A stretch of 58,212 nt of DNA, filler included, from Stramenopiles sp. TOSAG23-6 (GCA_900128565.1; 8 parts of 8 records of this genome joined end to end with filler, not necessarily neighbours in it), one strand, 5' to 3'; shown: positions 14,612 through 51,061, counted from the whole stretch's first letter. Numbers and translations are program-made. The notes: generated from the letters alone by a model not told the origin.

Positions 14612-14662
14612 CGAAATTTTGTACCTAACGATTTTTTTTTGAAATATTTTTCCAAAATACAT
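14612..14662 (+). other. Family intron, 3' half ending CAT
   Basis: CGAAATTTTGTACCTAACGATTTTTTTTTGAAATATTTTTCCAAAATACAT|. Confidence 0.8.
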
Positions 14663-15071
14663 GATTCCACAGGGCGAAAAAGAAACACTGACAAAAATTC
14701 AGACTATAAAAAGACAAATATGTGACGATGGATTAGATGAAGCTTGTGAGCTTTTGGGATGGCCTCATCCTCTAGATTATCGTATTGTACAGCAAAAGTA
14801 CATAAAAGAGTATAACAGAAATAATCGTCTTAAAATTGGACTTGGCAACAAACAACTAAATGGCGTCCCGCGTAAGTATGCAAGTGGTAGCACAGCTGTC
14901 AGAAAAACATTTAGTTATCAAAAAAGTGAATCAAGTGGTAATTCATATGCATCTTCTTCGAGACGTTCGCCGCATTCCCCATCTAGATCACCATCTAACA
15001 AAGGGGATTCATATAGGATGTCAACAAAAGCGGAAACAACAGAAAAAATACAATACAAAAGTCACACATAG
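14663..15071 (+). CDS. Terminal exon of an unknown protein
   Basis: Open frame after the intron acceptor; the ORF-track ATG overlaps the intron's CAT|G boundary. Confidence 0.6.
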
Positions 15072-15208
15072 ACTTCTTACATTATTGGGGAATAAAATAG
15101 GAATAGAGTCATATGTGAAAAAAATATGAAAGCTTTTATATAATACATTATAAATTATATGGCTTTTTTTTAGTTGTTTTATTTCTTTTTGTTATTTTTT
15201 TAATGATA

Positions 15209-16087
15209 TCACACATAAAGCATTCTATTATTATCTCGTCTCTTGTTAGGTGTTTCGGACAGGATATTTGAAAAATTCAAAGTCATTTCATCATCAATGG
15301 ATTCATCGGTGGCACTATTATAGTCTTTATAGCCTATGTTATATTCAGTTGAATTATCATGTACTTTCTCAAGTGTCCTCGGATTAAAGTTAGCAGGGTT
15401 AGGGTTATTTACTTTTGTCGAAGGGTTAGGGTTGCTTTGGTTTCTTATATAGAACGTTTTAACTATTTGTTCAAGAACCTCAATTCGTTTATCTTTTATC
15501 TTGAGTAGTTTATTCAATAGTTCTATTTGATTATTATACGCTTTCATTTCAGAGTTTTTTATGTACTGTAAAAATATATGTCAAATTAGAAATTTGTTAG
15601 GTATAAAGTGTAGTACAAAAAAAAAAGTTCGAAATTGATTAGGGTTAGGGTTAACATACATAGAAAGTAATTCACGAGAGTTAGATATGACAGCTTCCTT
15701 TTCTACTATAAGTTCATTATTTGCGTCTCCCAATGCGTTTAATTCAACTACCTTACGCAATAAATTGTGAGTTTCAAAACGTGGATCATTAAGCAGAGAC
15801 AAATTCAGTTCACTCTGAATAAGTTCGATTTGTGTCTGCAGAGATTTAAAATTCTTTTTGCCTATTGGACGTTTTCGCCATTTTTTACTCTTCTGCAATT
15901 CTTTAGATGCCATGTTTGCGTTGTAGCTTATTTGCGCGTGTAGACCAATATACTCAGCCTTTTTCGCACTAATATATGGATTACTTAGTCGTGTTTTCAA
16001 TTTTCTGAGTTGTTTTACGTCTTCAAAAGTCGATCGCACAATCGTTTGTAGTTCTAAAGTTTTGTTCTTTATCTGCATTGACGACAT
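15209..16087 (-). CDS. Hypothetical coiled-coil protein; exons 16087..15660 and 15560..15209
   Basis: Two ORFs joined in frame (ELLS-I-KNSEMKAYNNQ) by removing 15561..15659. Confidence 0.7.
15561..15659 (-). other. Non-canonical GT-AT intron (99 nt, phase 2) containing (AACCCT)2
   Basis: TCT AT|GTATGTTAACCCTAACCCTAA...ATACCTAAC...TTTTTACAGTACAT|A AAA AAC; using the CAG 5 nt upstream gives ATT ACA TAA (stop). Confidence 0.8.
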
Positions 16088-16407
16088 TATTTTCCAGGAG
16101 GTTAGAACATAAGAGTATTGTGTATATAGAAGTTATTTTATATCATTGTTGTTGAAGTCTCTCAGAGAACTTTCATAATTTTATTGATGAACCTGATCTG
16201 ATCCTAACTTTTATACCGTTTTTTTCGAAAAAAAAAACGAAAGAAAAAAACGTTTCAACATCAAAAAATCAAGGATTATTTGACTTGTATCATACTACTA
16301 CTAGTTACAATCATGTCTTAGTTAGGTAAAAAATGTTTCCACTATACTGAAAAGTATTGCAATACACATTAAAGATTATTTCTGGATACTAGCATATTAG
16401 TCTAGGA

Positions 16408-18798
16408 ATGGACGAGGGGTGGTTATTTTCTGGATATTTGGATAAAAGAACGTCGGGTATTCGAAAAAAGTGGATTCAAAGATTCTTTGTGTTGAAGCAT
16501 GACGTGGTACCGACAGTTTCGTCACCTAAAAAACAAAAAAAATTGAAACCACCAGAAAAGAGTGTAATACGGGGTCGAAATGATCACTTACAGCTGCAGT
16601 GGTTCCGTGGCGCTCATGAATCTCACAGTGGATCTAATCCTAAAGGATCATTTTTCTTATGTAAGGACACTACAATAGTTGAATCTGTTGAGCTGAGCAA
16701 TGCATCGATATACTCGCGACCGTACTGTTTTGAGATCAATTTTAAGGGAAAAGAGGAGCGAAGACTTATTTTATCTGCTCATACAAAAGATGAACGATAT
16801 CGGTGGATTCAATCTGTACAAAATATTCTTACAAATGTTAATGGGGGTGAACTCCACAAAGCAAAAATGAAGTCAAAAAAACAAGAAAATATAAAAAAAC
16901 AACAAAATATACGTAAAAGATTAAATACTGAAAATGTAAACACGTCCAAAATAGAAAAACAACAAAACAATGATTCTTCTTCTATTCTACTAGACAGTAC
17001 AATACAGGCTTTAGACCCTACACCGGACCATATTCCTAATCCTCTAGAGACAAAGAGCACTACTTCTACAACATCTCTAGATAGCACTATTGCAACCGAA
17101 AAAGGTCAACAATCACCACAGACCAAATCAATTTTGTCTGTTGAAACCAAAACTGAATGTACCAAATCAATTTTGTCTGTTGAAACCAAAACTGAATGTA
17201 CTGGTAGTAATGAACAAGTCATCCATCCTCTATATACAATAAATGAAAAAATTTTGTGTTTTTATAAAAAGAGATGGTATGATGGAATCATTAAACAATT
17301 CAAATGTGTACATTCAAATTTTACTACCATGAAGGCTAATTATCGATGGTGTAGTGCAAAAGATGGTGGCTGGACAAGATCCCCAATGTATATTAAAAAA
17401 TGGATATTTTGTGTAGAAATTGTCAATTTTGTGGGTACATCCAAAAGTTTTACAATAGAAAATGTGGAGGAAGGTTCTCTACGTAAAACTCAAAATGACA
17501 TTTTCCATGGTAGTCAAATACATAAATTCACAAAATCTATACTAAGGACAATAACATCAACAAATACTGATACGAATAAGAACACGAAATCTCGTGAAGA
17601 GCCTATACTAAGGACAAATACTGATACCCCCTCCCCTACGAGTAAGAACACGAAACCTTTTGAAGAACATGAGACAATACAAGCTAACAAACTATCTAAA
17701 ATACAATCGATAACGAGAAGCGAAAATCCAATATATAAAAAAGGGAATTCTGTACGATTATTAGACTATACTACTACTACATACGGCATTGTTCATTCTA
17801 TAGTGTATCGACAGCAATCAACGAAAACACCTCATAAAAAAACACCATATAACAATATTTCTTATAATGTTGAAATCTTTACGAATAATCTTTCTAATGA
17901 ATTATATACAAAACAAAATAGCACAATAGTAACCTACATTCATGAAAAGCGAATAATGCCAGTAGACATATACTACGTGAATGATATTATTTTAGGTAAT
18001 TATAGAGGCGATGATGAATTTTACCTTGGCAAAGTTGTTCAAAAACATAATTACGCTAGATACCCTTTTAATACTAAATACGATATTCAATATGAAGATG
18101 GTGTCATTGAAAAATATGTGTCATTAGATAAAATACTATATTTTGGAGAGTTACACAAAGGTGATACAGTACAAGCATATTTACCAAAGCTACTTCAGTG
18201 TGACGACCAGGGCTGGTGTGATGCAACTATAAAACATATATACGAAGGGAATATATATGACGTGACTGTGAAGAATAATATAGCAAATATGCAAAGTGTA
18301 GTTGTAACTACTAGTGCCAGGTACATACGTACAAATAGTTTCAAATTAATGCTTCAAAGATCTAAACAATATACCCAGAAACAAAAAAATATCAAAAATG
18401 AAAAATATCAAAAAAAACAATCGACACAGAAAAATAGTAAATGTAACATTGAAAGTTCCATTTTTTGTATTAGTGATAAAGTTTGCGTAATAAATCCGAA
18501 TAAAAACAACAAGTCAAATAATGAGAAAAGACGTGGAACAATATATAAAGTCCATAGAAATGATAAAGAAGAATTTCATGTGAACAACCCGTGTTTTACC
18601 ATATTGCTTGCAAATGGGAAAATATTGACCAATGTTCCAATATTATGGATAAAACATGATGCTAACGATGTTGATGATGATGCTGATGTTGATGATGTTG
18701 ATGATGTTGATGATGTTGATGATGAGGATATATACAATAAACTATTGAATGAGGAAGAGATCGGCTACAAGAGATGGTTGGAGTTCAATATGAAATAA
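16408..18798 (+). CDS. PH-domain protein with C-terminal Tudor-like repeats
   Basis: SGYLDKRTSGIRKKWIQRFFVL...RPYCFEI...LILSAHTKDERYRWIQSVQ (PH); GNYRGDDEFYLGKV...YDIQYEDGVIEKYV (Tudor-like). Confidence 0.8.
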   Translation: MDEGWLFSGYLDKRTSGIRKKWIQRFFVLKHDVVPTVSSPKKQKKLKPPEKSVIRGRNDHLQLQWFRGAHESHSGSNPKGSFFLCKDTTIVESVELSNASIYSRPYCFEINFKGKEERRLILSAHTKDERYRWIQSVQNILTNVNGGELHKAKMKSKKQENIKKQQNIRKRLNTENVNTSKIEKQQNNDSSSILLDSTIQALDPTPDHIPNPLETKSTTSTTSLDSTIATEKGQQSPQTKSILSVETKTECTKSILSVETKTECTGSNEQVIHPLYTINEKILCFYKKRWYDGIIKQFKCVHSNFTTMKANYRWCSAKDGGWTRSPMYIKKWIFCVEIVNFVGTSKSFTIENVEEGSLRKTQNDIFHGSQIHKFTKSILRTITSTNTDTNKNTKSREEPILRTNTDTPSPTSKNTKPFEEHETIQANKLSKIQSITRSENPIYKKGNSVRLLDYTTTTYGIVHSIVYRQQSTKTPHKKTPYNNISYNVEIFTNNLSNELYTKQNSTIVTYIHEKRIMPVDIYYVNDIILGNYRGDDEFYLGKVVQKHNYARYPFNTKYDIQYEDGVIEKYVSLDKILYFGELHKGDTVQAYLPKLLQCDDQGWCDATIKHIYEGNIYDVTVKNNIANMQSVVVTTSARYIRTNSFKLMLQRSKQYTQKQKNIKNEKYQKKQSTQKNSKCNIESSIFCISDKVCVINPNKNNKSNNEKRRGTIYKVHRNDKEEFHVNNPCFTILLANGKILTNVPILWIKHDANDVDDDADVDDVDDVDDVDDEDIYNKLLNEEEIGYKRWLEFNMK

Positions 18799-18977
18799 TA
18801 AATTGCAAATTCAATTCAATTTTTTTTTTTAAATCAGTTAAAATACCGTTAAAATACCGTTATAATTCATACGTACCTTAAAAACTACTACTACATCTAT
18901 CTAGCTAGCCTTTTGTTTATCTTTCAATGCACAAATGTTACAACATAAATTAGGATGGACTTCTAATAAATGAAATC

Positions 18978-20501
18978 ATGAAGTCATACAAATGGCTACT
19001 ACTAGTTCTATTCCTATTGCACGGAATAACTATAGATTGTAGTCATAATAGTCGTGAGAAACATCCTCCAAAGCCTTTAACCTGGATTGAAGTTACTCAA
19101 TTTGAGGTCATAAGAATACTTCTTGCAGTAAAATATGTGACATTTAGATGGGGAAGAAGTCACATTCGCCATGGTTCCTCAATATATTCTGGTAGTAATG
19201 GACTCGCTCTTTTGCAAACCGTTAATTCAAAAGTTTACTTAGGAGATGATATAGTCGACAGTGACGAAACTAACGATGAACCTTGGGATGAGATATGTCC
19301 AAGTTATATTTTTGGACTTCAAATGCGTGTGCTGAAACAAAAAAGACAACTATCCGATGCGACGAAGAAAGTGAATACAGCTATCGAAAATCTCAATGTA
19401 TTTCATAGAAAAAATAACCCTAAGGATGTAGCAACAGCTCAAAAAATGTTAGTTGAAGCTTCCGAAGCCGCATTTACCGCTCAACTTGAGGTAGCAGAAG
19501 CTACAGAACTTTTCGAGAAAGAAAAAACCGTGGAATTAATGTATGCCATGAATACAGCTCAACAGCGCACAAAAACATTTATCGAAGCTGAAGTTCAAGC
19601 TAGAGCCAATGCAATGATTGCTGCTAAAGCCACCCTTGCAGCACAAACCGCAGGATTTGACGAAACTATAGCTAGTGCTAAACTTAAAGAACTCGAAACA
19701 ATAAAAATTCACGCCTCGGCGACAAAACAAGCTGTAAAATCCAAGGAAGTCGCTTTTGAATCTAAGAAAAAATTCAACCAATCTTGTGAGGCAGTAGCTG
19801 ATTTAGAAATGTCGAATGCAAAAGAAGCTGTCAAAGTAGCAGAAAATTCGAATCGATTTTATACAAAGAAAGCTATGGAAATTAGTGAGAAAGCCACACT
19901 AACGCTGCAAAAGGTAAATAAAACAGTAGCTAAGCTGAAAGTAACTTGCAAGGATGCATATGAAGCTATAATCAAATCATACGCAGATTACAAATCGGCT
20001 GTCAAAGCTAGAAAAAAAGCTGATGAATCTGCTAAAGCTAAAAAAAAAGCGGAAGATGATGCCAAAGATGCAAATGGAGTCGCTAGAGCTACAAAAAAGG
20101 CTAAAGACGATGCAAAAAATGCAGATATCGCTGAAACAAAAGCAAAGATAAGCGCTGAAGCTGAAATTGCAGCAATTAAAAAGAGACAAGAGTTTTGTAA
20201 TTTTGAAGTGAAGAGCGAGCCAACGTTTAAAATGCATTATCAAATTTTGAAGTTATTCTCATTGCTAAGAAGTGTGAAATCTCAAATCGAAACTGATGGG
20301 AGTTGTAGTCAAGATGAAACGAGTCGGTCTTTCTTATTTGACTATGGAAGTTCAATATTTTTGATGTCTACAGTAGATGGAAAGGTCTTTATAGAAGATG
20401 AGAATGTTGGTACTTTAAATAGTGACGAGAATGACAATAGTAGTCAAAATAATAGTAGACAAAATAGTGATCAAAATAATGCTCTTCTACGATTACAATG
20501 A
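18978..20501 (+). CDS. Secreted Ala/Lys-rich coiled-coil protein, function unknown
   Basis: Signal-peptide-like N-terminus MKSYKWLLLVLFLLHGITIDC and a long helical Ala/Lys/Glu region. Confidence 0.65.
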   Translation: MKSYKWLLLVLFLLHGITIDCSHNSREKHPPKPLTWIEVTQFEVIRILLAVKYVTFRWGRSHIRHGSSIYSGSNGLALLQTVNSKVYLGDDIVDSDETNDEPWDEICPSYIFGLQMRVLKQKRQLSDATKKVNTAIENLNVFHRKNNPKDVATAQKMLVEASEAAFTAQLEVAEATELFEKEKTVELMYAMNTAQQRTKTFIEAEVQARANAMIAAKATLAAQTAGFDETIASAKLKELETIKIHASATKQAVKSKEVAFESKKKFNQSCEAVADLEMSNAKEAVKVAENSNRFYTKKAMEISEKATLTLQKVNKTVAKLKVTCKDAYEAIIKSYADYKSAVKARKKADESAKAKKKAEDDAKDANGVARATKKAKDDAKNADIAETKAKISAEAEIAAIKKRQEFCNFEVKSEPTFKMHYQILKLFSLLRSVKSQIETDGSCSQDETSRSFLFDYGSSIFLMSTVDGKVFIEDENVGTLNSDENDNSSQNNSRQNSDQNNALLRLQ

Positions 20502-20624
20502 AAGAATACAAAAAAGCAAAAACAAAAAAACAATTGCTACAAAATATTTTACATGAATACATCAACATTCAAAACCAAATTATTAAGTACAACGTTTATT
20601 GTGAAAACAAAAAAAAATTAAATA

Positions 20625-21760
20625 TTATTTATTTCTATTTTTCCATTGTTCACACAAAAAACGTTGTTCCAATTTTGTGTCTCTACCATGAAAATGTTTT
20701 CCTCCATCTGACTGATGCTTCAAAATTTCTCTTAATTCATCACAAATCTCCAGAACTGATTTTTTCATAGCTTTAGCATCATTCTGATTACAGTCTAGTA
20801 TAGTTTGTCTAGTTATAGCTCTGAACTCTTGCAAAATTTCTAAAAATTTATTATCCTGTACATCATTCATAATAGAATGATTTGTAGTATTGGTTTCGGA
20901 ATGAACCAATTTATCAAACATATTTGGATCAATAATCTGTATGCCACCAATGCAACGCTCTGATATATATTGTAAAACAATAATTCAAAAATTTGATTCG
21001 TTTTGTTAGGTACAGAATTTTCTATAAAAAAAAAATGAAAATAAAATGAAAACATACAAACCCATAACAGATAATATTGAATGTATCTGTGCTCTTGCTG
21101 CCAAAAGTAATTCTATATTTAAATCTATATTTGAGGCATTTGGCAAATTTGAAACTGTTTTTTCCGTACTTAATTTCGTATCTAACGAATTTCGAATTTC
21201 TTCATGACATTTTATATATTTATGTGTAGTTTTTATTGTATTTCCTAGTATCGACAAAACCTTTGGTGTATCGAAATCGTTTCGAAATGCTTCTTTGATT
21301 TCATTATTTGATGTTGTAATTATCGAAAACAACATATTATCATTGGAACAAAATTGTCTGTTTTGTGGACCATTTCGTTTTTTCTGTTCAAGATGAGCTG
21401 ACTTTATTGTTTCTTCAGTAATATTTAAAAATGTTGTCATCTTTTTTAAAATAATTGAAGCTTCTTTCATACTTTCTATAGAGTAGTGTACATCACTACT
21501 GTATTTATGTATTTTGGAAAAATATTTCAAAAAAAATTCTAAAAAATTTGTTAGGTACAAAATGTCGTACGAAAAATAAATTCGATTTTTTTGTTTGAAA
21601 AAAAAATAAAACATACATGTTGTAAACACCATATGCGAAATGTATCTGCACAAATTTCTTTTGTCTCCGAATCTGAAAATTTGTGTTTTGATTTTAATAA
21701 GTTCTGAATAGTGATAAAATTTTTTAAAGACTTTGACATTTTCATTCCTTTAATATGAAC
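20625..21760 (-). CDS. CARS: Cysteinyl-tRNA synthetase, C-terminal part (5' partial); exons 21760..21617, 21506..21058, 20964..20625
   Basis: VHIKGMKMSKSLKNFITI (KMSKS), spliced FRIWCLQH|KYSSDVHYS..SM.EA, DFDTPKVL, ILSVMGL, FR..TR, ICDELR. Confidence 0.88.
20965..21057 (-). other. Non-canonical GT-AT intron (93 nt, ends TAT, phase 2)
   Basis: GGT TT|GTATGT...AATTCTGTACCTAAC...TTTTACAATATAT|A TCA GAG. Confidence 0.8.
21507..21616 (-). other. Non-canonical GT-AT intron (110 nt, phase 0)
   Basis: CAA CAT|GTATGT...TTTTCGTACGACATTTTGTACCTAAC...CCAAAATACAT|AAA TAC restores the CysRS motif. Confidence 0.9.
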
Positions 21761-21814
21761 ATGTATTTTGGAAAAATATTTCAAAAAACAATTTCAATTT
21801 GTTAGGTACAAAAT
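21761..21814 (-). other. Family intron, 3' half ending CAT
   Basis: ATTTTGTACCTAAC...GAAATATTTTTCCAAAATACAT|GTT CAT ATT AAA GGA ATG AAA ATG TCA AAG. Confidence 0.85.
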
Positions 21815-21914
21815 NNNNNNNNNNNNNNNNNNNNNNNNNNNNNNNNNNNNNNNNNNNNTTAATTAATTAANNNNNNNNNNNNNNNNNNNNNNNNNNNNNN
21901 NNNNNNNNNNNNNN
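21815..21914. other. Artificial contig spacer
   Basis: N-TTAATTAATTAA-N. Confidence 0.97.
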
Positions 21915-21980
21915 TTTCGTACGAAATTTTGTACCTAACAATTTTTAGTTTTTTTTTTGAAATATTTTTCCAAAATACAT
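21915..21980 (+). other. Family intron, 3' half ending CAT
   Basis: TTTCGTACGAAATTTTGTACCTAAC...GAAATATTTTTCCAAAATACAT|GGC GGT. Confidence 0.8.
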
Positions 21981-24299
21981 GGCGGTAGTCGAAACAAAAT
22001 AACTTACAACAACGCGCGAGGAGAAGATGGCTCAACAATGCTTCGTATTTTAAATACGAAAGCATGCAATCATGGTACGATGTATGCTGCATTAGTACAT
22101 CGGATTGATTCATTTCGTCATTCGTCTTTTCGTGACAACGATGGAATTTCAATTAAAAATGATTATTTTTTTGATTTTTCAATACGTTGTATTGGCGGCC
22201 GTGGCGAAACATATTCGTCTCACAATGCCTATAATTTCACCAAAACAATTCAAAGAATGGAAACCTCTGGCGTACCCGTGATGCTTGCAGCGCAAAGTCC
22301 AGTCGAACATGAAAAAAAAGATCTGACAATCCTGGGTCTGCATTTATCAATATCTTTGACAACAACTCGTAGGTTTTTTTTTTCAAATTTAAAAAAATGT
22401 TTTTTGTACGAAATTTTGTACCTAACATTTTTTTTTTTTTATTTTTTTTTTCACAATACATGCTACGAAAATCTTGGAGATGACAAAGATGTTGACATGC
22501 AAAATGTAATTCGATACGGCATGGTATCGATATCGCAAAAGCCAACGCGTAATGTCCAAACGGATCAGATTGAAAAAATGAAAAACAAGAATGTGACAAA
22601 TTTAATTGTTTTCGATGGTGAAAATACCGGGAAAATTGAAGGATCTATTGGTATGAATGTTTTTAAGGTTGCCTTGTGTGCATCTCTTGTTCGCGTCGCT
22701 TTAAAGAAAAAAATAGATAGAAAACATAGAAAACGACAAGATTATTCTCTTAATGATAGTGAAAATGATGTAAAGGATTTTGCAAAATTGGCGATGGTAT
22801 CATTAGGCTTGAATGAGAATGAATCTGTGGAAGTTCCAACAAAACTTAAAGTACGTTTTAAANTTTCCATTTTTTTTTTATTTTATTTTTTTCATAGAAA
22901 ATTCTGTACCTAACGATTTTTTTATTTGATATTTTTTTTTTTACATGACGAACATCAGAAACGTATCAATGCCAAAACATTAACTTCAATCCCAAGTGCC
23001 CATTTGGAAATAAAGGCAGGCTATTTTGCATCTACTGCGTTAGGGGCGACGATTCATTATGATAAACAAAATCAAGAAAATGGTTATATAAAAAAACCAT
23101 TTCCATCGTTATGTCGTGTTGATTCGATTGAATACAATTTGATCGAAAAAATCAGCAGGGAATTTACTAACCCTAAAGGTAAAGTAAAAGCGGCAATGCT
23201 CATCCGATTAGTTGGATTGGAGCCATTCTATTTGGAAAATGATGATTTGGAAAGTGATGATTTGGAAAATGATGATTTGGAAAATGATGATTTGGAAATT
23301 AATGATTGGGAAGTTGGCGTCAAAAACATTGTAAAAAAAATCCAAAATGTTGGTCAATTTCAATGTCATCGTGCAGCGCATGATGTTCGGTATTTTTCTC
23401 AAATCCGATTATATCAGGATAATAAAGAAAAATGTGAAAATGTGATCAGTCATATAATTCGTGTTGTAGATGATGAGACAATCGATAATCTGCAATCGAT
23501 CGAATCAATCAATGATTCTGTGGACAATATCTGTGAAAACTTGGAAATTTGTGGTAATAAAGTAAATAATTTAGAGAAGTACCACATAGCTGCCGATTTG
23601 GCAAAAGTTTTTGGTCTGAAATATGATCGACCTGATAAAGTCTATACGCAAACTTTTCGTGCTAATCGTGGTGAAGGACGAGGTTTTGCTGCAATATCTG
23701 CAACGCTTGCTCGGTATTATGAGAATGATATGAATGGTTTCCCAGGTTCTTCTCTTGGTCTTGCAGGCGAGCGAACTATGTTAAAAGATACTGCCGAGGC
23801 ATTGAAAAGTGTATGTGATGTAGCTTTGGCAAAAAATAAAAATGGTAATGAAAATCATAATGATACTGATGATACTGATGATACTGATGATGATATTAAT
23901 AAAGACAATCCAACAAATCGTGATTATATTGAGAAAGCAATAGAATCACATTTATTGATTGTTGACGATTTTATGGATATTACTGAATATTTGTGTGCTG
24001 TATGTTATGGATTATTTAATGCTATATGTACAATGCATAGATTAACCAAAAATGATAATGACGATGATGATGAAAATGACGATGATGATGAAAATGATGA
24101 TGAAAATGATGATGATGATAATACCAAATTTCTTCCTTTCTGTAAAAAGAATCGGATGATTCATAAAATTATTTCCTTTGATTTTGCAAAAACATATTAC
24201 GATAAATACTATAAAGTTCGTAAAGAAGTTCAAAAGCGTAGTCGTGAAAGTCCTAATGTTGTTGAAAATGGTTCAAAACGTGCTCGTATAAATAGGTGA
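21981..24299 (+). CDS. Hypothetical protein with acidic tracts, 5' partial; exons 21981..22368, 22462..22850, 22947..24299
   Basis: Long open exons joined in frame by two family introns; no recognised domain. Confidence 0.7.
22369..22461 (+). other. Non-canonical GT-AT intron (93 nt, phase 1, stop-free)
   Basis: ACT C|GTAGGT...GTACGAAATTTTGTACCTAAC...TTCACAATACAT|GC TAC; read-through gives an implausible poly-Phe peptide. Confidence 0.8.
22851..22946 (+). other. Non-canonical GT-AT intron (96 nt, phase 0)
   Basis: CTT AAA|GTACGT...CATAGAAAATTCTGTACCTAAC...TTTTACAT|GAC GAA; contains an in-frame stop. Confidence 0.82.
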
Positions 24300-24588
24300 A
24301 ACATTTCTTTTACAATGACATTATGTCATTTTAATCTTTTAATAAAAGATTTTATTTTCATTTACACATTTTTATATTTTTTTAAATTCTAAATTTGGTA
24401 TTATTTTTTATACATGGCTCAAATAAAATTGAGAAAATCATGCTACATTTTTATATGCACCACGTCATTTACTTTTATCAGTAAAATTTTATAAATATTA
24501 TTTTGTAAATTTCCATGTGTATAGTGTAGTATGATACACTTTTATCAATACAACGCGTCATAGTTACTATCAATTTGAAATTTTTTTT

Positions 24589-26092
24589 CATACGAAATTT
24601 CGTATGTAAAAAAAANTTNCAAAAAAAAANGTAANTTTTTTTTTCGAACGAAATTAAAAAAAATAAATATTTCTTTTGTAATGATACACAAACATAAAGT
24701 CACCAAAATGTTAAACATTAAACAAGAAATTTGAAAGAAATCAATATAATGTTTATTAAAAGGTGGACTGTATCTATGTTAGGGTTAGGGTTATTTTTTC
24801 TTATCAAAAATTCTGAAAAAATAAATACAAAGATTTCGTGTAATATTCAAAAAGAATATCGATTTGAAAATTATTTTTTTAAAAAAATAAAAATTTTATG
24901 TTTTTCTGACAATGAACCAATGCTGTTCTATATCCATGCTCAGTATTGATAATAAGCCACATTGTGTCAGTTAAAAATTTTCAACATTTAACGGCTAGAA
25001 AATTCGTTGTCATTGCATCAAGATGAATAATAATATACCTAGGATTAGTTTTTTTTTTTTTTTCATACCTAATTTTGTACCTAACGATTTTTTTTTTTCT
25101 ACGGTTGTTAGGGTTAGGGTTTGATTTTTTTTTTTTTTTTTTTAGGGTTAGGATTTGATTTTTGATACGAAACGATTTGTTTTTTCAAATAAATTTCACA
25201 ATACACATCATCATACGCTATTAGTGTATCAATATTCCCTTCAATGATGCATTTTTGGTTTGTGTGCTGATCATAAAATGTTATTTGTTTAGTATTTGTT
25301 TTTTTTTCATACGCAATGTTGTACCTAACGATTTTTTTTAAAATATGTACAAAATTCTCTATGAAAAAAAACTAACTAGGATATTTCTATTTCAAAGATG
25401 ATGAATTACATCGGTATAGATAAAAAGAAATTTATTGAACAAAACTTCAAGATTGTATAAATAACAACCGTATCTTCAAATTGAAAAAAAAAAAAAAAAA
25501 ATTATGTATTAACTAGGGTTAGGGTTGCTATTCTTTGTCTAATTATAATCAATTGAATTAAAATGGAACAATATACATCATCTATCAAATAAATTTCATT
25601 CATGATATAATCAATCAAATTACTCTTTATACCAATAAAACGACGGAAAAGCATCAATTCAAAGCATTTCAAAAAAAATTATTTTCATACGAAATTTCGT
25701 ACCTAACAAGAAAAAAAAAAATTATCTAACAATTTTTTTTTTTTTAGGGTTAGGGTTAGGAAAATTTGTAACGATTTGTTTTTGATATAAATTTCACAAT
25801 ACACATGATAGAAACTAAGAATGTATCTCAATTATTTTTACAAAATATTATTTTTTTGTAATGTCTTAGGATTGTAATGTATTAGGAAAATGTCAAATTT
25901 TTTTTTTTTTTTTTTTTTGATTTCATACGAAATGTTGTACTTAACGATTTTTGTTTTTTTCGTACGAAATGTTGTACCTAACAATTTTTTTTTTTTTTAG
26001 GGTTAGGGTTAGGAAAAAAAAAAAAAATAATACCATACAAAAACATTTCATTTAACCAATATTTTTTTTTGATTTTTTTTTTCACAATACAT
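24589..26092 (+). repeat. Cluster of intron-family core motifs interleaved with (TTAGGG)2-3 and poly-T
   Basis: Core-motif copies near 24589, 25063, 25308, 25686, 25924 and 25961; TTAGGG tracts near 24779, 25108, 25142, 25514, 25744 and 25997; ends with acceptor TTCACAATACAT at 26092. Confidence 0.65.
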
Positions 26093-26902
26093 GGAATCGT
26101 TTGGCAGAGGGGGGTTGGATTAAAACAATATCAACGGCTTCATCATCAAGTGGAGGGGAAAAAGGAAATCGAATACTTACCACAACAGTAAACCCTAACC
26201 CTAATGATTCTCGAGTTGGAGATAAAAATACATCAAAGTTTGGATGCACTCCATGTGCAGATGAAACTGCCGACTCTAGTCAAAGTCTATTGAAAAAGAA
26301 ATCAATGCGAACCCCTAACCCTAATGATTCGAAATCAACAAATGATCAAAGTATATGGGTGTATCGAGACCCCAAAAAATGTTTAGGTTCCAAACGTAAA
26401 TCAAGTGACTCTTTGAGTAAAGCATTAGCTACGAAAAAAATCGGATCAGGGTTAGGGTTAGGCGAAATTTCTTCTTTAGTAGAAAACCAAGGTTTAAACC
26501 AAGGTTTGGAAAATCAAATACCAACACTTTTCAGACATAGAAGTAACCCAGGACAAAATGTACATATACATCAGAGAGTTCGATCTAGTAGGTTTCCATC
26601 ATAAAATTTCGATTTTTTTTTTGAATTTCAACTTTAATTCTTTTTCTTACGTGCATTTCATACCTAACAAAAATAGTTTTACTAAAAACATATCTTCACA
26701 AACTACATGCAGTATGCCAATTAGACCTGTTTTACAACAAACAATACTAAATACAAACCCTAATCCTAATGCATATCAAAGGCAACACAGGACATCAAGT
26801 GTCTGTAGTCGTGATAGTGAGTGTGCGAGCCCTGGGACAACTGCTCTTGCTTTTATTCTCACAAACATGGCTCAACCTCCAATTCCACCAATGAACATTT
26901 GA
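26093..26902 (+). CDS. Low-complexity hypothetical protein, last two exons (26093..26587, 26709..26902); upstream exons unresolved
   Basis: ORFs 26101..26604 and 26558..26902 are joined in frame by intron 26588..26708. Confidence 0.55.
26588..26708 (+). other. Non-canonical GT-AT intron (121 nt, phase 1)
   Basis: TCT A|GTAGGT...TTTCATACCTAAC...CACAAACTACAT|GC AGT ATG. Confidence 0.72.
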
Positions 26903-26973
26903 ATGAACATTTGAATGAACATAACATTTGAATGAACATAACATTTGAATGAACATAACATTTGAATGAACAT
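26891..26973 (+). repeat. Tandem ATGAACAT(AACA)TTGA minisatellite at the gene end / 3' UTR
   Basis: Visible 12- and 17-bp units. Confidence 0.8.
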
Positions 26974-29110: not shown

Positions 29111-29210
29111 NNNNNNNNNNNNNNNNNNNNNNNNNNNNNNNNNNNNNNNNNNNNTTAATTAATTAANNNNNNNNNNNNNNNNNNNNNNNNNNNNNNNNNN
29201 NNNNNNNNNN
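29111..29210. other. Artificial contig spacer
   Basis: N-TTAATTAATTAA-N. Confidence 0.97.
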
Positions 29211-29211
29211 C

Positions 29212-35550: not shown

Positions 35551-35694
35551 GAGACTTGGTGAAGTAAAGTATGAATTAAGAAGTTTCAAATAATTTAGTT
35601 TAAAAAAATAAAGATAGAATATTCTTATCAAATTACAAAATGTCATTTTATTTTTTAAATTCTGGTGTTTTGAAGATTCGAAAGTTCAGTAGTT

Positions 35695-36344
35695 TTATGC
35701 TCTGCCATACTCTTTTGCAAGTTCATATTGTTTAACCATATCCATAGGTTTCAGTTGCGTCGCATTTCTGTCAAAAAACATAGAATAATCAAAGAAATGA
35801 AGCGATTTTCGGAGTCTTACTTGTGCATCCACCACTTTCACATTTTCATCCTCTACGTCTTTTTCGTCACGAAGTTTCGATGATTCTACGTCTTTTTCGT
35901 CAAGAAGTTTCGATGATTCCATATTACTCGACCCTTCACAATTATCCTCATTTATAACGCTCTTATTTTTAAGATTTCCTGTATCATTATTTTGCAAAGT
36001 CAGGTCAGAATGAATTTCAGTCACTGCATAATTGAGATTGAAAATTTTATCAAAAATAATATTTGAAACTTCTCTAGACGAGCGCAATGTTCCTTTTGTG
36101 TTATACATAAAATTAACTGCACGTACAATACCCATGGAGGCAGTTACTTCCAACCAATATTTTGCATGTGTTTCTATTTGTGCAGCAGAGTCATCCTTAG
36201 AATCATTCATACCTGGTAACATCTCATCCTCAGAATCATTGATCATTGCACAAGTGGTAATCAACTCAATCATCTGCTCATGAGTGTCAACGTCAGCATT
36301 ACTCAAAAGACTTGATCTTGGTCTGTGACGCGAAAGTATGTACA
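35695..36344 (-). CDS. Terminal exon of an unknown protein
   Basis: Open frame downstream of a family acceptor CCAAAATACAT|TG TAC. Confidence 0.65.
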
Positions 36345-36397
36345 ATGTATTTTGGAAAAATATTTCAAAAAAAATCGTTAGGTACAAAATTTCGTAC
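36345..36397 (-). other. Family intron, 3' half ending CAT
   Basis: GTACGAAATTTTGTACCTAACGATTTTTTTTGAAATATTTTTCCAAAATACAT|, nearly identical to 14612..14662. Confidence 0.82.
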
Positions 36398-36497
36398 NNN
36401 NNNNNNNNNNNNNNNNNNNNNNNNNNNNNNNNNNNNNNNNNTTAATTAATTAANNNNNNNNNNNNNNNNNNNNNNNNNNNNNNNNNNNNNNNNNNNN
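36398..36497. other. Artificial contig spacer
   Basis: N-TTAATTAATTAA-N. Confidence 0.97.
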
Positions 36498-39400
36498 CAG
36501 AGAGAGCATTGAGTTTGAAGAGTGTCTCTCCCACTAAGCTTTTCAAGTGGAACATACGCGAGTGATGTGGCATCATAACTACTCAGGGGGATATTCGTTG
36601 TAAACTCTTTTTTACCCAAAACTTCATCTTTTAAGAGTATTAAATGTCCAAAGTATGATGAAGGGCAATCACATCGACTCTGTGTGTTATCACCAAGTAT
36701 GAGTGTGTCTCCAGGACATTCAGTAGCAACATAAGAACCTTCTGCACAAAATTCGCTCCCCTTACAAGCAACTTTTACTGCAGAATTAGCACATCTATGA
36801 TTTGCTGGGCATATACTTATTGAAGATACACCTTCTGCACAATATACAGCTAATGTATTTGTCACTCCCGCGGCTGGTTCACAACTTTGTTTTACTCTCG
36901 AGTCAATACAATATGATCCAGCTGAACACTTTTGTGGATTATGAGATCCGGCGGGGCAGAAATAGGCCACTTCCTTTGCATCTGTGATGGGATTTTCAGA
37001 ATCTTTTGGTTCATCAATTTCAGGAAAATCACAATTATATTTGTGTTTGCCATCCTTGCAGTAATACCCAGCAGGACATTTTATAGGTTGGGTCCTCTTT
37101 GGGGGACAATACCATGCAACATCAGCTGATTCCAAATTTACATCATGATTTTGAGAATCCCATATACAAGAATGTTTTGTTGATACAGTTGGACAGTAAT
37201 ACCCCGCTTCGCAACCTGGATTAGTTTTTACAATGGTAGTGACTGTTGGTTCTTCTACAACAAGTTCTGCCATTTGAAAACCAACAGTGACGATCACAGA
37301 TTGAACAATTTTCAATATATTTGCTACACTGAAAGTGTCAGCAGCGTTATTGCCATCATTTGTATTGCCATCATTTGTATTGCCATCATTTGTATTGCCA
37401 TCATTTGCATTCCCATCATTTGTATTCCCATTACTTTCGTCTTTGACATTCGTGGCTATTATTTTAAAATGATGTAATGATTCTGCGCAGGATACATGCA
37501 CACAATCATCTATAAGTGCAGGGCTTTTACACCAGCCAATGAAATCAGCAATCCATTGGTCAACTCCAGTGTCATCACATGCTGCTGCTTCAAGTCTACG
37601 CCGACGACTCGTTAACATTGTTAATGTTGTGGGATATTCCCTACTTTCAATTTCCACAGCCTTCCCTGTTTTCGTTCCTGCCGGACAGTATTCATCCTCA
37701 GAACATGGATCTATCTTTGAAGCGTCACTACACTTAAATCCTTCTGGGCATAATATTACAGATGTCCTAGAAGTTCCTTCTTGGCAATATGGCTGTTTTC
37801 CTGGATATTCAGCAAGTACATTAGGACAATCTGTGGAGTCATCAGAATCACAAGGATGTGGGGAGTCAGCAGAATCACAAGTATATGGAAGATCTGAGTC
37901 ACCAGAATCACAAGGGAATTCATTGTAACCACCATCACAAAAACATCCCGCTGTACACTTTCTTTTGGTACTCTGATCATCTACTAATTTACAAACCCAT
38001 CCCGTGTCTTGTGATTCGAGGAATGTCATTTGTTCATCTAATGGTTGATTCGAAATCCAAACGCACCTTTTCTTTTCTGTTGACTTGGGACAATAAGATC
38101 CATTCGGACACAACTGGGGTGATTTTGATCCTTCTTCGCAATAATATTTCCCATCATCACATTTTACAGGTTGATCGGTTATAATCGCACAGTAATGCCC
38201 TACAAGACACAGTACAGCCCTCAGTGATCCTGCTGGACAATAGTAGCCTAAATTCTGATCATCATCATTATGAAGAGCGCAATCTGCTATCTCCCTCGAT
38301 GTTGCACACATTTTTCCTTCGGGGCAATCTTCTTCTTTCGCTGTTCCAAGTGGGCAATAACTTCCAGGATCACATTGAATTGCTTTAAATGAACCTTCTG
38401 GACAATGGTAGCCAATTGGACACTCTTCCTTTTGAGCTGCGGTTTTACATAAATACCCTGCTGGACAAGGTACGCTTTGTTTTGATCCTAATCCGCAAAA
38501 ATCTCCGTCAACACAATCTGTTGGCTGATCACTTATGGTAGGACATTTTTTTCCGGCCGGACACTCCACTGCCTTCGTTGATCTTACCGGACAGTAATAG
38601 CCTTTGGATCCAGCATCGCTAGGATAAGCACAATCGTTTTTTTCACTTGGTGTCGGACACATATAATTTGCTGGACAGTCGTCTTGAACTGCACTTTCAA
38701 CTGGACAATAGCTACCGGGAAGACATGTTTCTTCTTTAAATGAATATTGTGGACAATAGAAACCACTTCTACATGTTGTCTGAGTACTCGGTGTTGGACA
38801 GTAAGATCCCGCACTGCATGGAATTTTGTTTTTTGTCCCTGCAGGACAGTAATACGCAGACTGGGCATTTTCGCATGGATTTCTAGTCTCTGGATTGGGA
38901 CATTCGTAATTAACGTCACAAATAGCGTCAACCAGGGTATTGAATACATTCCCTAGGGGACAATAAATTGCTTTACCATCCACTGGAACACACTTTTCAC
39001 GTGTTGTTCCGTATAAGTCACCAATTTTAGGACAATAATGCCCTGCAGGACATTTATTTTTCGATTTACTTCCTTCTGGGCAATAATAACGATATTCTAC
39101 ACAATCTTCGCCTTCACAACCCTGTTCCTTACTTGGAACACACGCCTCACGATGTTGACTTGTTTTGCAAAAGTAACCCGCATCGCAAAGATCGCAGTCA
39201 GCATTTGAATCACCAGTGTCAAACTTTCCGGGGCCACACGTTTCACAATAGCCGCAATCTACCAGTTTAGAATGATCTGTCATATCGACACTGCATTTCT
39301 CCACAGTGGCTTCGTTTGGCACACACGCTAAAAATAATTTCCATTCACATCCTTGAGTATCAGTACAATCACTTGTTGTCAATTTTTGCCCGCATGACAC

Positions 39401-42400
39401 CCCCCCAGACTGACGACATCTACTAGTATCTTGATTCCATGAACATCCTTGAGTATTATTACAAGTTGTTTCCGTCGAGTTGTCCGCGCAAATTCCAACA
39501 CAATAACCTTGATTCCATTTACTATCAGATGGTTTATCTTCACAGGCTTCATCAGTGACGAATTGTCCATCGACCTTTTTGCATAGGTTAGTTCTCCAGT
39601 TACAATTATTAGCATTATTGCAATCTCCATTTTTGTCTTTAAAGTTGAAACAACTTTCATCATAACCTGTTTCTTCATTACTACACCCCCACCATTTACA
39701 ATGCTCAGTGGGACAATCATTCTCCGTTGTGAAGGACATACATGGGACCATTTGATTGCCTTTACCACAACTTTCATCTGCTGTTTTGTCACATCTTGAG
39801 CCTATATATCCTAAATCACAGACACAAAATGCTGTGGTTTTTCCATTCGTAGTGTCCTTCATGCACAATCCATTACCATTACAATAATTATCATCCTTCT
39901 CACATTGTGTACAAGAATCATATAAATTATATTCTGGAGTACAACTTATTGTCATGTCGTTGTCCTTTTGACATTTTTTACCTTCACCTACAGGTCGGAC
40001 AGATATTGAATATTGCCTTTCGCAGCTATCATCACATAAAGTATCTTGTGAGTCCACACAATCCCTGTTACAGATTGCTTTATAAGGTTCCTCTTTTGTT
40101 CTGTCACAATGTTGGTCTGTAGCCGTACAAAAATCAGGATCTGTTATACATCTATGACAATTATCTGACGTTATTGAGTCTCGTAATGCATCACTACATT
40201 GTCGTGTGGGACAACGTTTTCCTCCTCCTTGTTTTGTTTGTGTTATCTTAGAACCTTGTATGCAATCATGGTAATCATTTAACCAGTCTTTAGGATCTTC
40301 AGGACCACACGAATCTAGCCATTCAACTTCACAATCTCGATTACTACAATTAGAACCCCACCATGGGCTCTCACAAATACATTTTGCAACACCTTGCGGA
40401 GATTTACCACATTTCGCATTTTCTAGATCATCACAGTTTAAGCTGTCACAATCAATACAATCATCGTACAGGGATTCACCATGATTACATGTCCCAGAGT
40501 ATCCGTCCTCGTAATCACAACTTCTACCACTTCCAGTTTTTTCTTTGGTGATAATAAATGTTTTTTTACACTCATTATCACAAGGACTCCAATGACCAAC
40601 ACAATCATTTTCTTGTGTACAATTTGGGCCCACATATCCTTCTTCACATTTACAATGTGATAATCCATCTTCAAGGACACATTCTCCTTTACCATTGCAG
40701 TTGTCAAATTTTTTACAATTGGCTACGGAAATAGGTTCCCTCACACTACTACAAATTGTCTGTCCTTGATATAGAACACATTTTTCGCCTTCCGAGGTAC
40801 ATTTATCGCAATCCCAATTTGGTATTGTTTCACATAAATACTTATCAGTAGCGTCCCGGGCATCACAACCCATTTCAGTAATACCACCCCTTGCAAATGT
40901 ATTTATGGCTCTTTTATAAATGCGGTGATTATTTGCACTTGTTGGATAGCATTTAGTTTCACGTTTAAAACAGCTACATTTTCCTTGATTGTTGATGGTA
41001 AAATAATGTGACATTTCGCATGATGAACGACAGTATTTATCACATTCAACGCTCAGATTTTTCCAGTACAAATCATCTGGGTCAGAGCTACTTTCAAACG
41101 TCTTAAATTGATCAGGGTTTACGTTGTTACATTTTTTATCAATATTATCAGGTTCTAACAGAGGCTCCAATGTCATAGTTCCTGGCTTGTTAAGTTTTAG
41201 ACATTTTTTCGTGTCGTCATCATTGAGTTCGATATTGCGTTTAGGTTGCCATAAAGAAGTTGATACTTTCGTTGCGTCAAGCATAGTAAAGTTTTCTTCT
41301 TCAGAACAGTTAGAGCTACATTTCCCTCCAATCCATGTTCCAAAGCTGGTTAGAGATTTATTTGTAACCACAGACATTTCAGAAATCTCATTTTAGTTGT
41401 GTGGAACTGCTAATTGCATTCCCCTCAGTTCACACTCTTCTTTTGCCGAATCCCAAGACACCAGTGGTCGTTTTTTGAAACGATTCACTGACCCGGATTC
41501 ATAGAAATAAAGTTCATCAAAAATTATACCAACATAACCCAAATCAAGATAACCAATACCAGGTCGCCACTGCCTCCAATTGTAATTGTAGCCGTTTCTG
41601 TTTAGTTCTACATACATCATCTGAATTGTCGCAGGGGGATCAAACCTTTTTGACCAAACTGAGCCATGAAAATACCATTCTTTATACATACTTGGATTTA
41701 TCCATTCTGAAGTATACGACTCCTCCTCTGAGTTTGATATCTCAGGAACTACAACGCGAAATTTCCACTTCCCAGTAGTTTGAGACCCATAGCCAGCACC
41801 TTCACCTGTTGGTCGCATTTTGATGAAATTTATGCTCCGAGGATTGTCAAATGTAACCTTAAGTTTGAAGGTTTGATTATAACTATTCCCGAAATTAACA
41901 TAATAATTTTTGTAATCTGTATGTACGCCGTTTTGAACATGACACTTTGAGCCATCAAAAGCGTGTGTTAAATCTTTACCTTGATTAGGTTCAGTTACCA
42001 CAGTAACGACATCCGGGATTCTGTATTGATTGTTACTCCAACAAGTATTGCCTCCAGTGGGGCATTTTAAGTCAATCATTTTATTCCCGGCGATATATTC
42101 ATAGAATTCAATTTCATCAAGATAGTTACCTTGAGTAAGGCTTATTACTGCATTTATTGTTGGGCCAACTTCAACAGGCTCACCTTCTTCATTTATGATG
42201 TCTAAGTTCCATTCGTTGTTCACTTGACCCGTATTACCACTCAGGAATGCATTTGTCAGTTTTCTGCCATTCCATGTTTTAGAACCAATTGTTAGTGAAG
42301 GTTGTATTGTAGATCTGTGTGCTATTCTTGTTGGATATCCAAATGAATAGTCAACTACTTGACCGGGGGTCCAGTATCCACATCGAACCTTAGCTGCTCC

Positions 42401-43644
42401 AAACAAATATTTTCTCTTAAATTCAAATTTAAATGAAGATTCGTAGTTGATGGTTCCACTCCTGCCATTTGCGAACGGATTCATAAAAACGTTTTGATAC
42501 CACCAACTGCCCCCCGAGAACGAAGCGCCATAATTAGATTGATTAAAAAGCCCTTGCATAAGCCAAAAATACATCCCATTATCAAACCAATTCCAATAGC
42601 CACCGGTATATTGATAAACATCTGTATAAGAAATCAATCTATCTGGGGTCACCACGATACCCCACTCGGTACCAGCTTCCACCTCAGCTTTGGAGGGATA
42701 ATAGTAAACTTGTGTTGCTTCATCATTAAACCTCATAGGTCTGGCATAACCCCCACATTTCGCATGAGCCATGCCATATCGAAATTCAGGGTATCCCCGT
42801 GGGCAGTGGCATGCCATATCAAGTAGTACAAGATCTGTTTCATCATCTTCTTCTGAAAGTCTACGCCGCCTACTTGCAGCAGTATCGATTTTTTCAACAC
42901 CTTCATATATTGAAATCTCCTCCAATATTGGCCCAAATGTACCCGATTTTTTCACTGTAACTGTAATTGTTTCAACACTTACCACTTCGTTAAATTTCTT
43001 AGTCCATACGTACCCAAATTTTTCATTGTCTTTTGTTTCAGTTGAAGATATGTACTCGCTACCCACCTGAATTTGAAAAGAATTTCCATTAGTATTACCA
43101 GACCTACCAACTGGTCGCACACCAACTTCCTTAATATTGCGAGCCTCTGGAAATGTAATCGTCAACGTCACATCAGTGTCATTCTGGTTCTCTTTCATAG
43201 ATATATTAACAATTTCAGGTTTTGTCAAATCATCGTTATACACTCGCACGTCTGATAAAAATCCTTTATAGCAACCATATTTTTCTATGAAGCTATCTGT
43301 ATCATCATTATTGTCTTTGGTATCGTCATTACAAAATGATATTCCCAAGTGATTTGTTTCATGAGTTCCATCGTTACTGATATTTTTGCTTCCTGACACA
43401 GAATTCTGACCTTTCAATACACCATCAACATACAGAAACATACTTGAACCATCATATACTCCACAATAATGATGCCATTCATTTATATCTATAGATTTAA
43501 TATCAGCTTCAACGACGTTCATCCCGGTTGTATATATACCAAATTTTATTGTATCACGATTGACAGGTTGTAAATAGAAAATATTCCTAAAATCCGAGTT
43601 GAGTTTAACCCACTTATTGATCCACATTGGATTGTCGTTACCCC
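36498..43644 (-). CDS. Giant Cys-rich extracellular protein (LamG/pentraxin-like, C-type-lectin-like, EGF, TSP1-like and C-P-x-G-x-Y-C repeats), partial at both ends, with one in-frame TAA at 41393..41395
   Basis: EWHHYCGVYDGSSMFLYVDG (LamG); SWDSAKEECELRGMQLAVPHN*NEISEM...WIGG (CTL); CNGKGEC..CKCEEGYVGPNC (EGF); DCVGHWSPC (TSP1); dozens of CPAGxYC repeats. The two ORFs are in the same frame. Confidence 0.8.
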
Positions 43645-43683
43645 ATTTATTTTGGAAAAATATTTCAAAAAAAAATCGTTAGG
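43645..43683 (-). other. Family intron, 3' half ending AAT
   Basis: CCTAACGATTTTTTTTTGAAATATTTTTCCAAAATAAAT|GG GGT AAC. Confidence 0.78.
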
Positions 43684-51060: not shown

Positions 51061-51061
51061 G

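Follow-up and report, generated by a model that had tools for sequence, protein, structure and literature searches.

The GT-AG rule of introns ranks amongst the most conserved features of eukaryotic genes, and large-scale exceptions to it are few (Fritillaria, Amoebophrya, euglenids). The DNA analyzed here, a stretch of 58,212 nucleotides (nt) referred to as the window, raises the question of what kind of introns its genes carry and where these introns end. The window consists of eight contigs joined by spacers of the form N44-TTAATTAATTAA-N44; it is AT-rich (GC content 0.23-0.41) and its genes are eukaryotic, with very few introns. A preliminary description had proposed that the introns form a repeat family with a palindromic hairpin next to the branch point, representing either a recently mobile intron-generating element or an unusually long cis-signal that substitutes for recognition of AG. 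Judged from the sequence, every intron is apparently a copy of one short element, to which all 22 introns recognized in the window belong. We consider it fairly probable that these copies represent a very high-copy, non-autonomous, transposon-like "introner" family of 90-180 nt in the genes of a compact, intron-poor and AT-rich marine stramenopile.

The family is readily recognized at the sequence level. The shared block first reported at 14612 and 36345 is present at 14612-14662 (+) and 36345-36397 (-), the two copies differing by one T in a homopolymer run, and the variants listed with it (21915, 21761, 43645, 44529 and 7695) are all genuine members. The two palindromes, TTTCGTACGAAA and GTACGAAATTTYGTAC, abut CTAAC directly in most of the 22 aligned cores, as had been described. 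With up to two mismatches allowed, GTACGAAATTTYGTAC has 28 matches on the two strands, compared to 0.13 expected from shuffles. An nhmmer profile built from nine full copies (cut-off E<=0.01) returned 29 matches in the window and one in an unrelated public metagenome contig, L001, nine of these 30 being the copies that built the profile. This search agrees with the earlier proposal of a single repeat family, in which we can distinguish subfamilies. Members are spread over unrelated genes, encoding a cysteinyl-tRNA synthetase, a sulfotransferase, a TMEM161-like protein and a Tudor+SET protein. They do populate the range from 14612 to 43683 to which the family had been assigned, but extend farther, from 2408 to 57769. 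The near-identity initially claimed likewise holds for the blocks and not for whole copies, which are 42-81% identical in pairwise comparison (median 62%). The copies are, in order of position:

Intron A, 2408..2504, plus strand: 97 nt, GT..AT, Tudor+SET gene; open reading frames (ORFs) of 801 and 430 codons joined in frame; nhmmer E=5.7e-12; 11-nt terminal inverted repeat.
Intron K, 7309..7363, minus strand: only the 5' half; the contig end cuts the core palindrome.
Intron B, 7695..7786, minus strand: 92 nt, GT..AT, TMEM161AB-like gene; frame fits; inverted repeat of 9 nt plus TTTCAAA/TTTGAAA; surrounding exons match Pfam Tmemb_161AB positions 2-207 and 231-326.
Intron J, 7847..7956, minus strand: 110 nt, GTAGGT..ACAT, same gene as intron B; frame fits, with 2 bases left over upstream and 1 leading base downstream.
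Intron L, 14612..14662, plus strand: 3' half, beginning at a contig end.
Intron R, 15561..15659, minus strand: 99 nt, GT..AT, core diverged; CCCTAA repeat right after the 5' end; frame fits between ORFs of 157 and 116 codons.
Intron S, 20965..21057, minus strand: 93 nt, GT..AT, cysteinyl-tRNA synthetase gene; junction gap-free against orthologue P0001.
Fragment V, 21144..21199, plus strand: core plus CTAAC, antisense within a coding exon of the cysteinyl-tRNA synthetase gene; nhmmer E=3.2e-4.
Intron C, 21507..21616, minus strand: 110 nt, GT..AT, cysteinyl-tRNA synthetase gene; P0001 gap-free over ..CLQH|KYSS..; terminal arms of 30 nt, 70% complementary.
Intron O, 21761..21814, minus strand: 3' half at a contig end, immediately before the KMSKS exon, whose start is the start of the alignment to PDB chain 9yru_A (chain residue 308).
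Intron M, 21915..21980, plus strand: 3' part at a contig end.
Intron D, 22369..22461, plus strand: 93 nt, GTAGGT..ACAT; frame fits.
Intron T, 22851..22946, plus strand: 96 nt, GTACGT..ACAT, core-ATAGAAAATTCTGTAC subfamily; frame fits between ORFs of 304 and 450 codons.
AT-rich non-coding stretch, 24571..26092, plus strand: at least six degenerate partial copies interleaved with TTAGGG repeats; nhmmer matches at 24571, 25056, 25298, 25680, 25921 and 25955, consisting of core plus CTAAC, mostly without a 5' splice site.
Intron W, 26592..26708, plus strand: diverged; nhmmer E=1.8e-3; guessed 5' end not frame-consistent.
Intron N, 36345..36397, minus strand: 3' half at a contig end.
Intron P, 43646..43683, minus strand: 3' part at a contig end, ending AAAT.
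Intron E, 44474..44582, plus strand: 109 nt, GT..AT; an A-run replaces the 5' half of the core; frame fits.
Intron E2, 44674..44852, plus strand: 179 nt, GT..AT, diverged; frame fits; spotted by eye, weaker than nhmmer E=0.01.
Copy Q, 45064..45185, minus strand: 122 nt, both ends complete, internal duplication, without long flanking ORFs; in an untranslated region (UTR) or intergenic.
Intron Y, 46109..46200, minus strand: 92 nt, GT..AG, with ATACAG where other members have ATACAT; frame fits.
Intron G, 56793..56893, plus strand: 101 nt, GTACGT..GCTT (GT..TT), sulfotransferase gene.
Intron H, 57212..57335, plus strand: 124 nt, ATATGT..GTAT (AT..AT); junction ..FPQG|RFIHIIR.. gap-free.
Intron I, 57412..57589, plus strand: 178 nt, GTAGGT..GCAT; junction ..AWY|GATNKKW.. 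gap-free.
Intron F, 57659..57769, plus strand: 111 nt, GT..AT, TTAGGG repeat after the 5' end; junction ..SESD|LSRLE.. gap-free.

A typical copy starts with (C)AT|GTATGTTTTA(T)n-CAAA and a variable spacer, continues with TTTC-GTACGAAATTTYGTAC-CTAAC and a U-rich spacer, and closes with GAAATATTTTTCCAAAATACAT| or TTTTTTCACAATACAT|, giving the consensus intron ends GTATGT ... ACAT. Copies are 92-179 nt long, with 5' ends of the GTATGT, GTAGGT or GTACGT type and CTAAC positioned 33-52 nt before the 3' end; the T content of the sense strand is 29-60%, lowest in Q and at least 39% in the other 14 copies. The ends of the element form imperfect inverted repeats (ATGTAT(G)TTTT ... AAAATACAT) with flanking AT, and the termini of the family carry ATGTATGTTTT.

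In order to locate the intron boundaries, copies were excised along their consensus ends and the longest reading frames on either side were tested for continuity. The frames join in 16 of 17 copies (10 of 10, then 4 of 4 further ORF-flanked copies, then 2 of 3), where chance would give one in three; Q, which has no long ORFs on either side, is outside this count. Homology fixes six junctions exactly and without gaps, those of C, S, G, H, I and F. The minus-strand gene at 20600-21814 was identified as cysteinyl-tRNA synthetase through the KMSKS region of PDB chain 9yru_A (E=1.8e-4) and Pfam tRNA-synt_1e, and the alignment to its orthologue P0001 has no gap across introns C and S, while a PDB search with the exon following intron C was without a match. 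Pfam match positions are too coarse to set the boundaries in the TMEM161-like and cysteinyl-tRNA synthetase genes, and the P0001 alignment was used instead. For the spliced sulfotransferase model, the four junctions (G, H, I and F) are free of gaps in all 14 homologues inspected out of 29 aligned, and with these 14 only a length of 101 nt is compatible for intron G.

The final dinucleotide is AT in 22 of 24 copies, the exceptions being G (TT) and Y (AG), and the first is GT in 17 of 18, with H starting in AT. Together with the frames joined at the consensus ends, this upholds the earlier statement that the copies do not end in AG. Use of a downstream AG as 3' splice site was considered and rejected, as the first AG encountered from the consensus end onwards is frame-compatible in 5 of 14 cases, which is the chance rate, and the alignments also oppose it. 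In copies with the same AT or CAT at either border, the cut could be moved by 1-3 nt with the mRNA unchanged; however, no register gives GT-AG, and GT..AT alone is common to nearly all copies. As frames and homology agree on these ends and AG fails, we infer that the copies are introns with GT-AT rather than GT-AG termini. The AT-AC register, in which both borders are moved by 2, fails for D, G, I, S and T. U12-type AT-AC introns have ATATCCTT at the 5' end and the branch site TCCTTAAC near the 3' end; this class is excluded by the GTATGT, GTAGGT or GTACGT starts, by the distance of 33-52 nt from CTAAC to the end and by failure of the AT-AC register. Intron Y, with its ATACAG end beside the ATACAT of other members, fits the frame as a GT-AG intron, so that G and U seem interchangeable at the last intron position.

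The palindromic RNA hairpin proposed next to the branch point finds no support in the alignment, with a covariation score of 0.106 compared to 0.108 after shuffling and weak folding. Over the 22 cores aligned, 80.2% of cells in the central stem of 6 bp are paired versus 80.7% in shuffled alignments (421 of 500 shuffles reached or exceeded the observed value), and variant copies disrupt stem pairs instead of compensating. For a TTTC/GAAA stem the signal is weak (10 of 500 shuffles) and explicable by relatedness alone, and the nine full copies fold with -3.7 to -20.5 kcal/mol at z-scores of -2.74 to +0.45. Rfam yielded no match in the window, and hence no small nuclear RNA (snRNA) there, and ARAGORN likewise found nothing in it. 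The sample is small, so the hairpin should be regarded as unsupported by these sequences, not as disproved. Most likely, the central palindrome is an inherited DNA feature of the element and not a selected RNA hairpin. Conventional U2 would pair with CUAAC alone, which would leave the conserved GTAC box unexplained.

Similar introns need not be related by descent from a mobile element. In an intron-poor lineage the spliceosome could demand long signals (GTATGT, GTAC-CTAAC, AAUACAU), and unrelated, vertically inherited introns would then look alike. GTATGT and CTAAC are indeed strong consensus signals typical of intron-poor eukaryotes and match the ones seen here. The signals are present in all 22 recognized introns, the conserved blocks lie between fast-diverging spacers (median whole-copy identity 62%), Y ends in AG at the identical position, and in C, E and M the AGs 12-15 nt past CTAAC would break the frame if used. 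What such constraint does not account for are the arbitrary spacer indels and motifs common to introns of unrelated genes. C and E, in unrelated genes, both carry TTTTAGAATTTT after CTAAC; TCTACAT is found in the 5' spacer of A, J and the L001 copy; and L, N and P have CTAACGATT in common and are nearly identical across 38-51 nt. Furthermore, the 5' and 3' types co-vary: five of the six GTATGTTTTA copies have CCAAAATACAT-like ends, and all three GTAGGT copies have ends of the CACAA..CAT type. Constraint likewise leaves aside the inverted-repeat ends and the degenerate copies in non-coding DNA that lack a 5' splice site, some of them in tandem: 7 of the 29 copies are non-coding, six of them degenerate partial copies in the AT-rich stretch at 24.5-26.1 kb, two of which are 37 nt apart. 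Nor does it predict the antisense fragment V within an exon, which is read through as coding and coincides with a 22-residue insertion relative to P0001, and which may represent an unspliceable insertion tolerated in a variable loop. Finally, a palindrome of 16 nt upstream of the branch site would not be explained by conventional U2 pairing. Taken together, we regard constraint without mobility as unlikely, albeit as the strongest competitor of a mobile family.

The ends of the copies and their orientation bear on how such a family could have spread. Terminal inverted repeats were found in all four copies examined, with short, AT-rich arms of 7-30 nt that are 70-100% complementary (A has 11 nt, B has 9 nt and a further 7 nt, the L001 copy has 7 nt, and C has arms of 30 nt with 70% complementarity). 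In 9 of 16 copies, AT immediately precedes the 5' end, compared to a background of 0.10 (p=6e-6), or in 11 of 18 with E2 and Y included, and the gene is restored when one AT is excised along with the element. All genic copies but one (21 of 22) lie in sense orientation, which fits selection for the spliceable orientation. The same bias would also be expected from spread at the RNA level, where an excised intron reverse-splices at ..AT| sites of other transcripts and the copy is fixed through reverse transcription and recombination. Exact boundaries, the preference for an upstream AT "proto-splice site" and the absence of a visible transposase from the 32 window ORFs scanned are in line with this route, but inverted ends, an antisense exonic fragment and partial and tandem copies in non-coding DNA are not, making it an improbable one.

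Short, AT-rich sequences with inverted ends that interrupt ORFs in any phase and leave one flanking dinucleotide behind also resemble the internal eliminated sequences of ciliates, which would imply that the elements are cut from the DNA of an expressed nucleus. Eliminated DNA, however, would not be expected to show so strong a sense bias, nor to carry a canonical 5' splice site and a branch motif. The elements are abundant in contigs from RNA libraries, exact removal of an element was seen in none of the 15 DNA joints listed (a further 106 joints lie beyond this listing), and nuclear dimorphism is not known from stramenopiles. Excision from DNA is thus highly improbable.

To gauge the abundance of the family, contigs of four public runs were placed on 51061-58212, a region with four intron copies. 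The high copy number that had been suggested is borne out by the source DNA run, X1, of which 3,080 short contigs were placed on these 7.2 kb, where they pile up on the four copies. Unique DNA has a depth of about 12.7 in this run, while three of the four intron-bearing bins sum to 43,730-485,709 and the fourth to 8,779; summed depth is not equal to copy number, but values of this size show that near-identical pieces of the family number at least in the thousands. The stretch is contained in seawater metagenomes, and X3, a seawater metagenome from another study, gives a matching pattern, the same four introns occurring at the same loci with contigs broken at the same cores. Within the window, 14 contig ends adjoin a spacer, and exactly six of them (7309, 14612, 21814, 21915, 36397 and 43683) fall inside the motif, in or right beside the core, as originally reported. 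Amongst public metagenome contigs, a search with the core plus CTAAC gave a single match, in L001, and the 22-nt 3' box gave none. A palindromic motif located at contig ends might point to an artefact of amplification, linker or assembly; yet the same copies at the same loci in another study's seawater metagenome, the copy in the separate contig L001 and the interruption of conserved proteins at frame-exact positions render this the least credible explanation of all, with a negligible probability.

A number of observations weigh against a mobile family of GT-AT introns. Intron W is the sole miss in the frame test, its 5' end being guessed and unlike that of the family. Splicing is deduced from frames and homology, with no junction seen in RNA: in metatranscriptomes X6 and X8, no RNA contig placed on 51061-58212 bridges an intron, although the sulfotransferase exons are barely covered and these data are uninformative on splicing. 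As AT is self-complementary, it is ambiguous as a target-site duplication, and part of the inverted repeat, target preference and exonic splice-site preference are indistinguishable. Pairing of the termini over 4 bp occurs without covariation (50 of 60 cells paired versus 49.5 in shuffles). The non-coding copies, all on the strand of the neighbouring genes, could be introns of transcribed UTRs, and selection on splice signals would also yield conserved blocks and free spacers. No transposase domain was detected in the 32 window ORFs scanned, and no empty-site allele amongst the contigs of the public runs placed on 51061-58212. With identities of 42-81% (median 62%), most assembled copies therefore appear to be old. 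A mobile origin is still the best reading; the youngest copies are probably those that broke the assembly.

In the mobile introner family that we favour, the element would have colonized host genes and would now provide their introns. Each copy would bring its own splice signals, namely a yeast-like 5' GTATGT, a U-rich body, the invariant box TTTC-GTACGAAATTTYGTAC-CTAAC with CTAAC as likely branch site, a second U-rich tract and then the conserved 3' box ..AAUACAU. With a cut behind ..ACAT, located 33-52 nt beyond the branch A, the spliceosome would take out the element together with one AT and thereby restore the frame, which is what makes these introns GT-AT rather than GT-AG. The family would derive from a DNA transposon, with CTAAC serving as the branch point, and the introns would be removed by a spliceosome of the U2 type in which U can stand for G at the last position. 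A long cis-signal substituting for AG recognition, initially proposed as the alternative, may be compatible with a mobile origin because the element itself could supply the signal that replaces AG.

A more far-reaching and decidedly tentative scenario is that one introner family replaced essentially the whole intron set and that the 3' rule of the spliceosome moved from AG to AU. A at position -2 would be retained and G at -1 replaced by U, the 3' site would be located via the conserved AAUACAU box and its fixed spacing to an extended GUAC-CUAAC branch box, and the 16-nt palindrome would be a working cis-element, either as the binding site of a dimeric protein or as the pairing partner of a co-evolved snRNA. 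We would bet against this complete scenario, including its account of 3' site recognition and of the palindrome. If true, the AU rule would constitute a second independent genome-wide escape from the AG rule beside Fritillaria, this time in a protist.

The identity of the host was addressed with two of its proteins. In a dynein tree calculated from the C-terminal 1,000 residues, the window sequence and two other proteins form one group (Shimodaira-Hasegawa-like approximate likelihood-ratio test, SH-aLRT, 100), which is nested in a clade (support 100) that includes every one of the eight named stramenopiles; a separate clade comprises the animals, the fungi and a nucleariid-like entry. For the Utp13-like protein, the top named matches are oomycetes with 38-44% identity, and animals appear far lower in the list. 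These two results place the host amongst the stramenopiles and not the animals, and on this sequence evidence we take it to be a marine stramenopile-like protist. A larvacean tunicate, our first idea, prompted by animal-looking Pfam matches and the literature on Fritillaria, is excluded by both; specifically, a fritillariid larvacean does not agree with the position of the animals outside the window's clade in the dynein tree.

The window has further features of note. Long ORFs are uninterrupted, that of the dynein heavy chain over 2,112 codons and that of an EF-hand protein over 1,826. Two minus-strand ORFs of 761 and 1,631 codons are parted by only TAA-A-ATG at 41390-41400 (-), meaning that the genes are either extremely tightly packed or else co-transcribed. 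The first contig (1-7208) holds 67 of the 82 single-base Ns of the window, and sequence quality is lower there. At its end, a truncated tRNA-like gene is seen on the minus strand at 7140-7208, where ARAGORN reports none; this could be another repeat-induced assembly break. The non-coding stretch at 24571-26092 has a GC content of 0.23 and lies between two plus-strand genes. It contains at least four loosely repeated units, all on the plus strand, with core-CTAAC, a T-run, TTAGGG repeats and ..AAATTTCACAATACA(C)AT, and might represent either a graveyard of elements or a 5' UTR with several introns. Short blocks resembling telomeres, (TTAGGG)2-3, occur throughout the window, with 22 matches compared to 0.06 expected (for example at 15639, 24779, 25108, 25744, 25997, 26193 and 26313, and further at 26446, 28819, 54144-54554, 56083 and 57666). 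They occur in non-coding DNA, right after the 5' ends of introns F and R, and in frame within ORFs, where they translate as PNPNPN, NPIPN, PNPN or GLGLG. All three sites in the Utp13-like ORF match gaps in the orthologue P0152, so that from the alignment these blocks look like lineage-specific insertions into coding sequence. One idea is that they stem from telomerase acting at repaired breaks.

Each exception to the GT-AG rule shows the flexibility of the spliceosome and how transposons make introns. Textbook 5' and branch signals with only the last base altered would isolate the 3' splice-site step cleanly, and if confirmed, the family would demonstrate that a single element family is able to rebuild the intron set of a genome. 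On the practical side, gene prediction based on the GT-AG rule will go wrong for the majority of intron-bearing genes, both in this host and in its relatives in marine metagenomes.

A literature search returned no description of such introns in stramenopiles, though they may already be in print, as subscription papers and supplements were not covered; in a single-cell stramenopile paper, intron terms occur in the methods text only (PMC5778133). Introners, including non-canonical ones, are already known elsewhere, and the window would add a family whose introns have GT-AT termini and whose host is a marine stramenopile. Intron-poor eukaryotes have near-invariant splice signals, such as GTATGT/TACTAAC in budding yeast or the 3' motif of Trichomonas and Giardia, and the window resembles them in its few introns per gene and its near-invariant GTATGT and CTAAC. 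Unlike the family described here, the introns of those organisms close with AG, and they are not known to constitute a high-copy repeat family in which inverted ends or non-genic copies occur.

Close parallels are found in other marine protists, the primary paper on Micromonas and Aureococcus being Huff et al. 2016. Introners with canonical splice motifs are established for the stramenopile Aureococcus anophagefferens and the green alga Micromonas pusilla (PMC11282704, PMC7789003). Like these, the copies in the window are short, non-autonomous, DNA-transposon-like elements that would be spliced as introns, occur as similar copies in unrelated genes of a marine protist, and have inverted ends and a possible flanking duplication contributing to the splice site. 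They differ from the Aureococcus introners and their canonical motifs (PMC7789003) in ending in AT in 22 of 24 copies and in AG in one, from both systems in the conserved central palindrome fused to CTAAC, and from Micromonas in a flanking repeat of 2 nt rather than the 3 nt reported there.

With regard to the 3' end, the family resembles the introns of Fritillaria. AT is the commonest 3' intron end in F. borealis and F. pellucida (44% and 34%), with splice sites that map to the inverted repeats of transposons of the non-autonomous kind (PMC13326754, bioRxiv 10.1101/2025.08.15.670264); the last three intron bases are YAY, which often also precedes the 5' site, and a U-rich tract lies before the 3' AT (PMC13326754). 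Here, YAY is found at the 3' end of 20 of 24 copies and upstream of 7 of 18, and a U-rich tract likewise precedes AT. Fritillaria is a tunicate, however, and with a stramenopile host any likeness would be convergent. Moreover, 17 of 18 copies in the window start with GT, whereas AG/AC and AG/AT dominate in F. borealis, and one family is dominant here in contrast to the highly diverse termini of Fritillaria. In the parasitic dinoflagellate Amoebophrya, introners are non-canonical without a clear dinucleotide signature, and U1 may be lacking (PMC7789003). This marine protist and the window share repeated non-canonical introns with inverted repeats at their ends and without a transposase inside; short direct repeats border the introns of Amoebophrya and may do so here. 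The 5' site, branch box and 3' box of the family described here are, in contrast to those of Amoebophrya, highly uniform and spliceosomal-looking.

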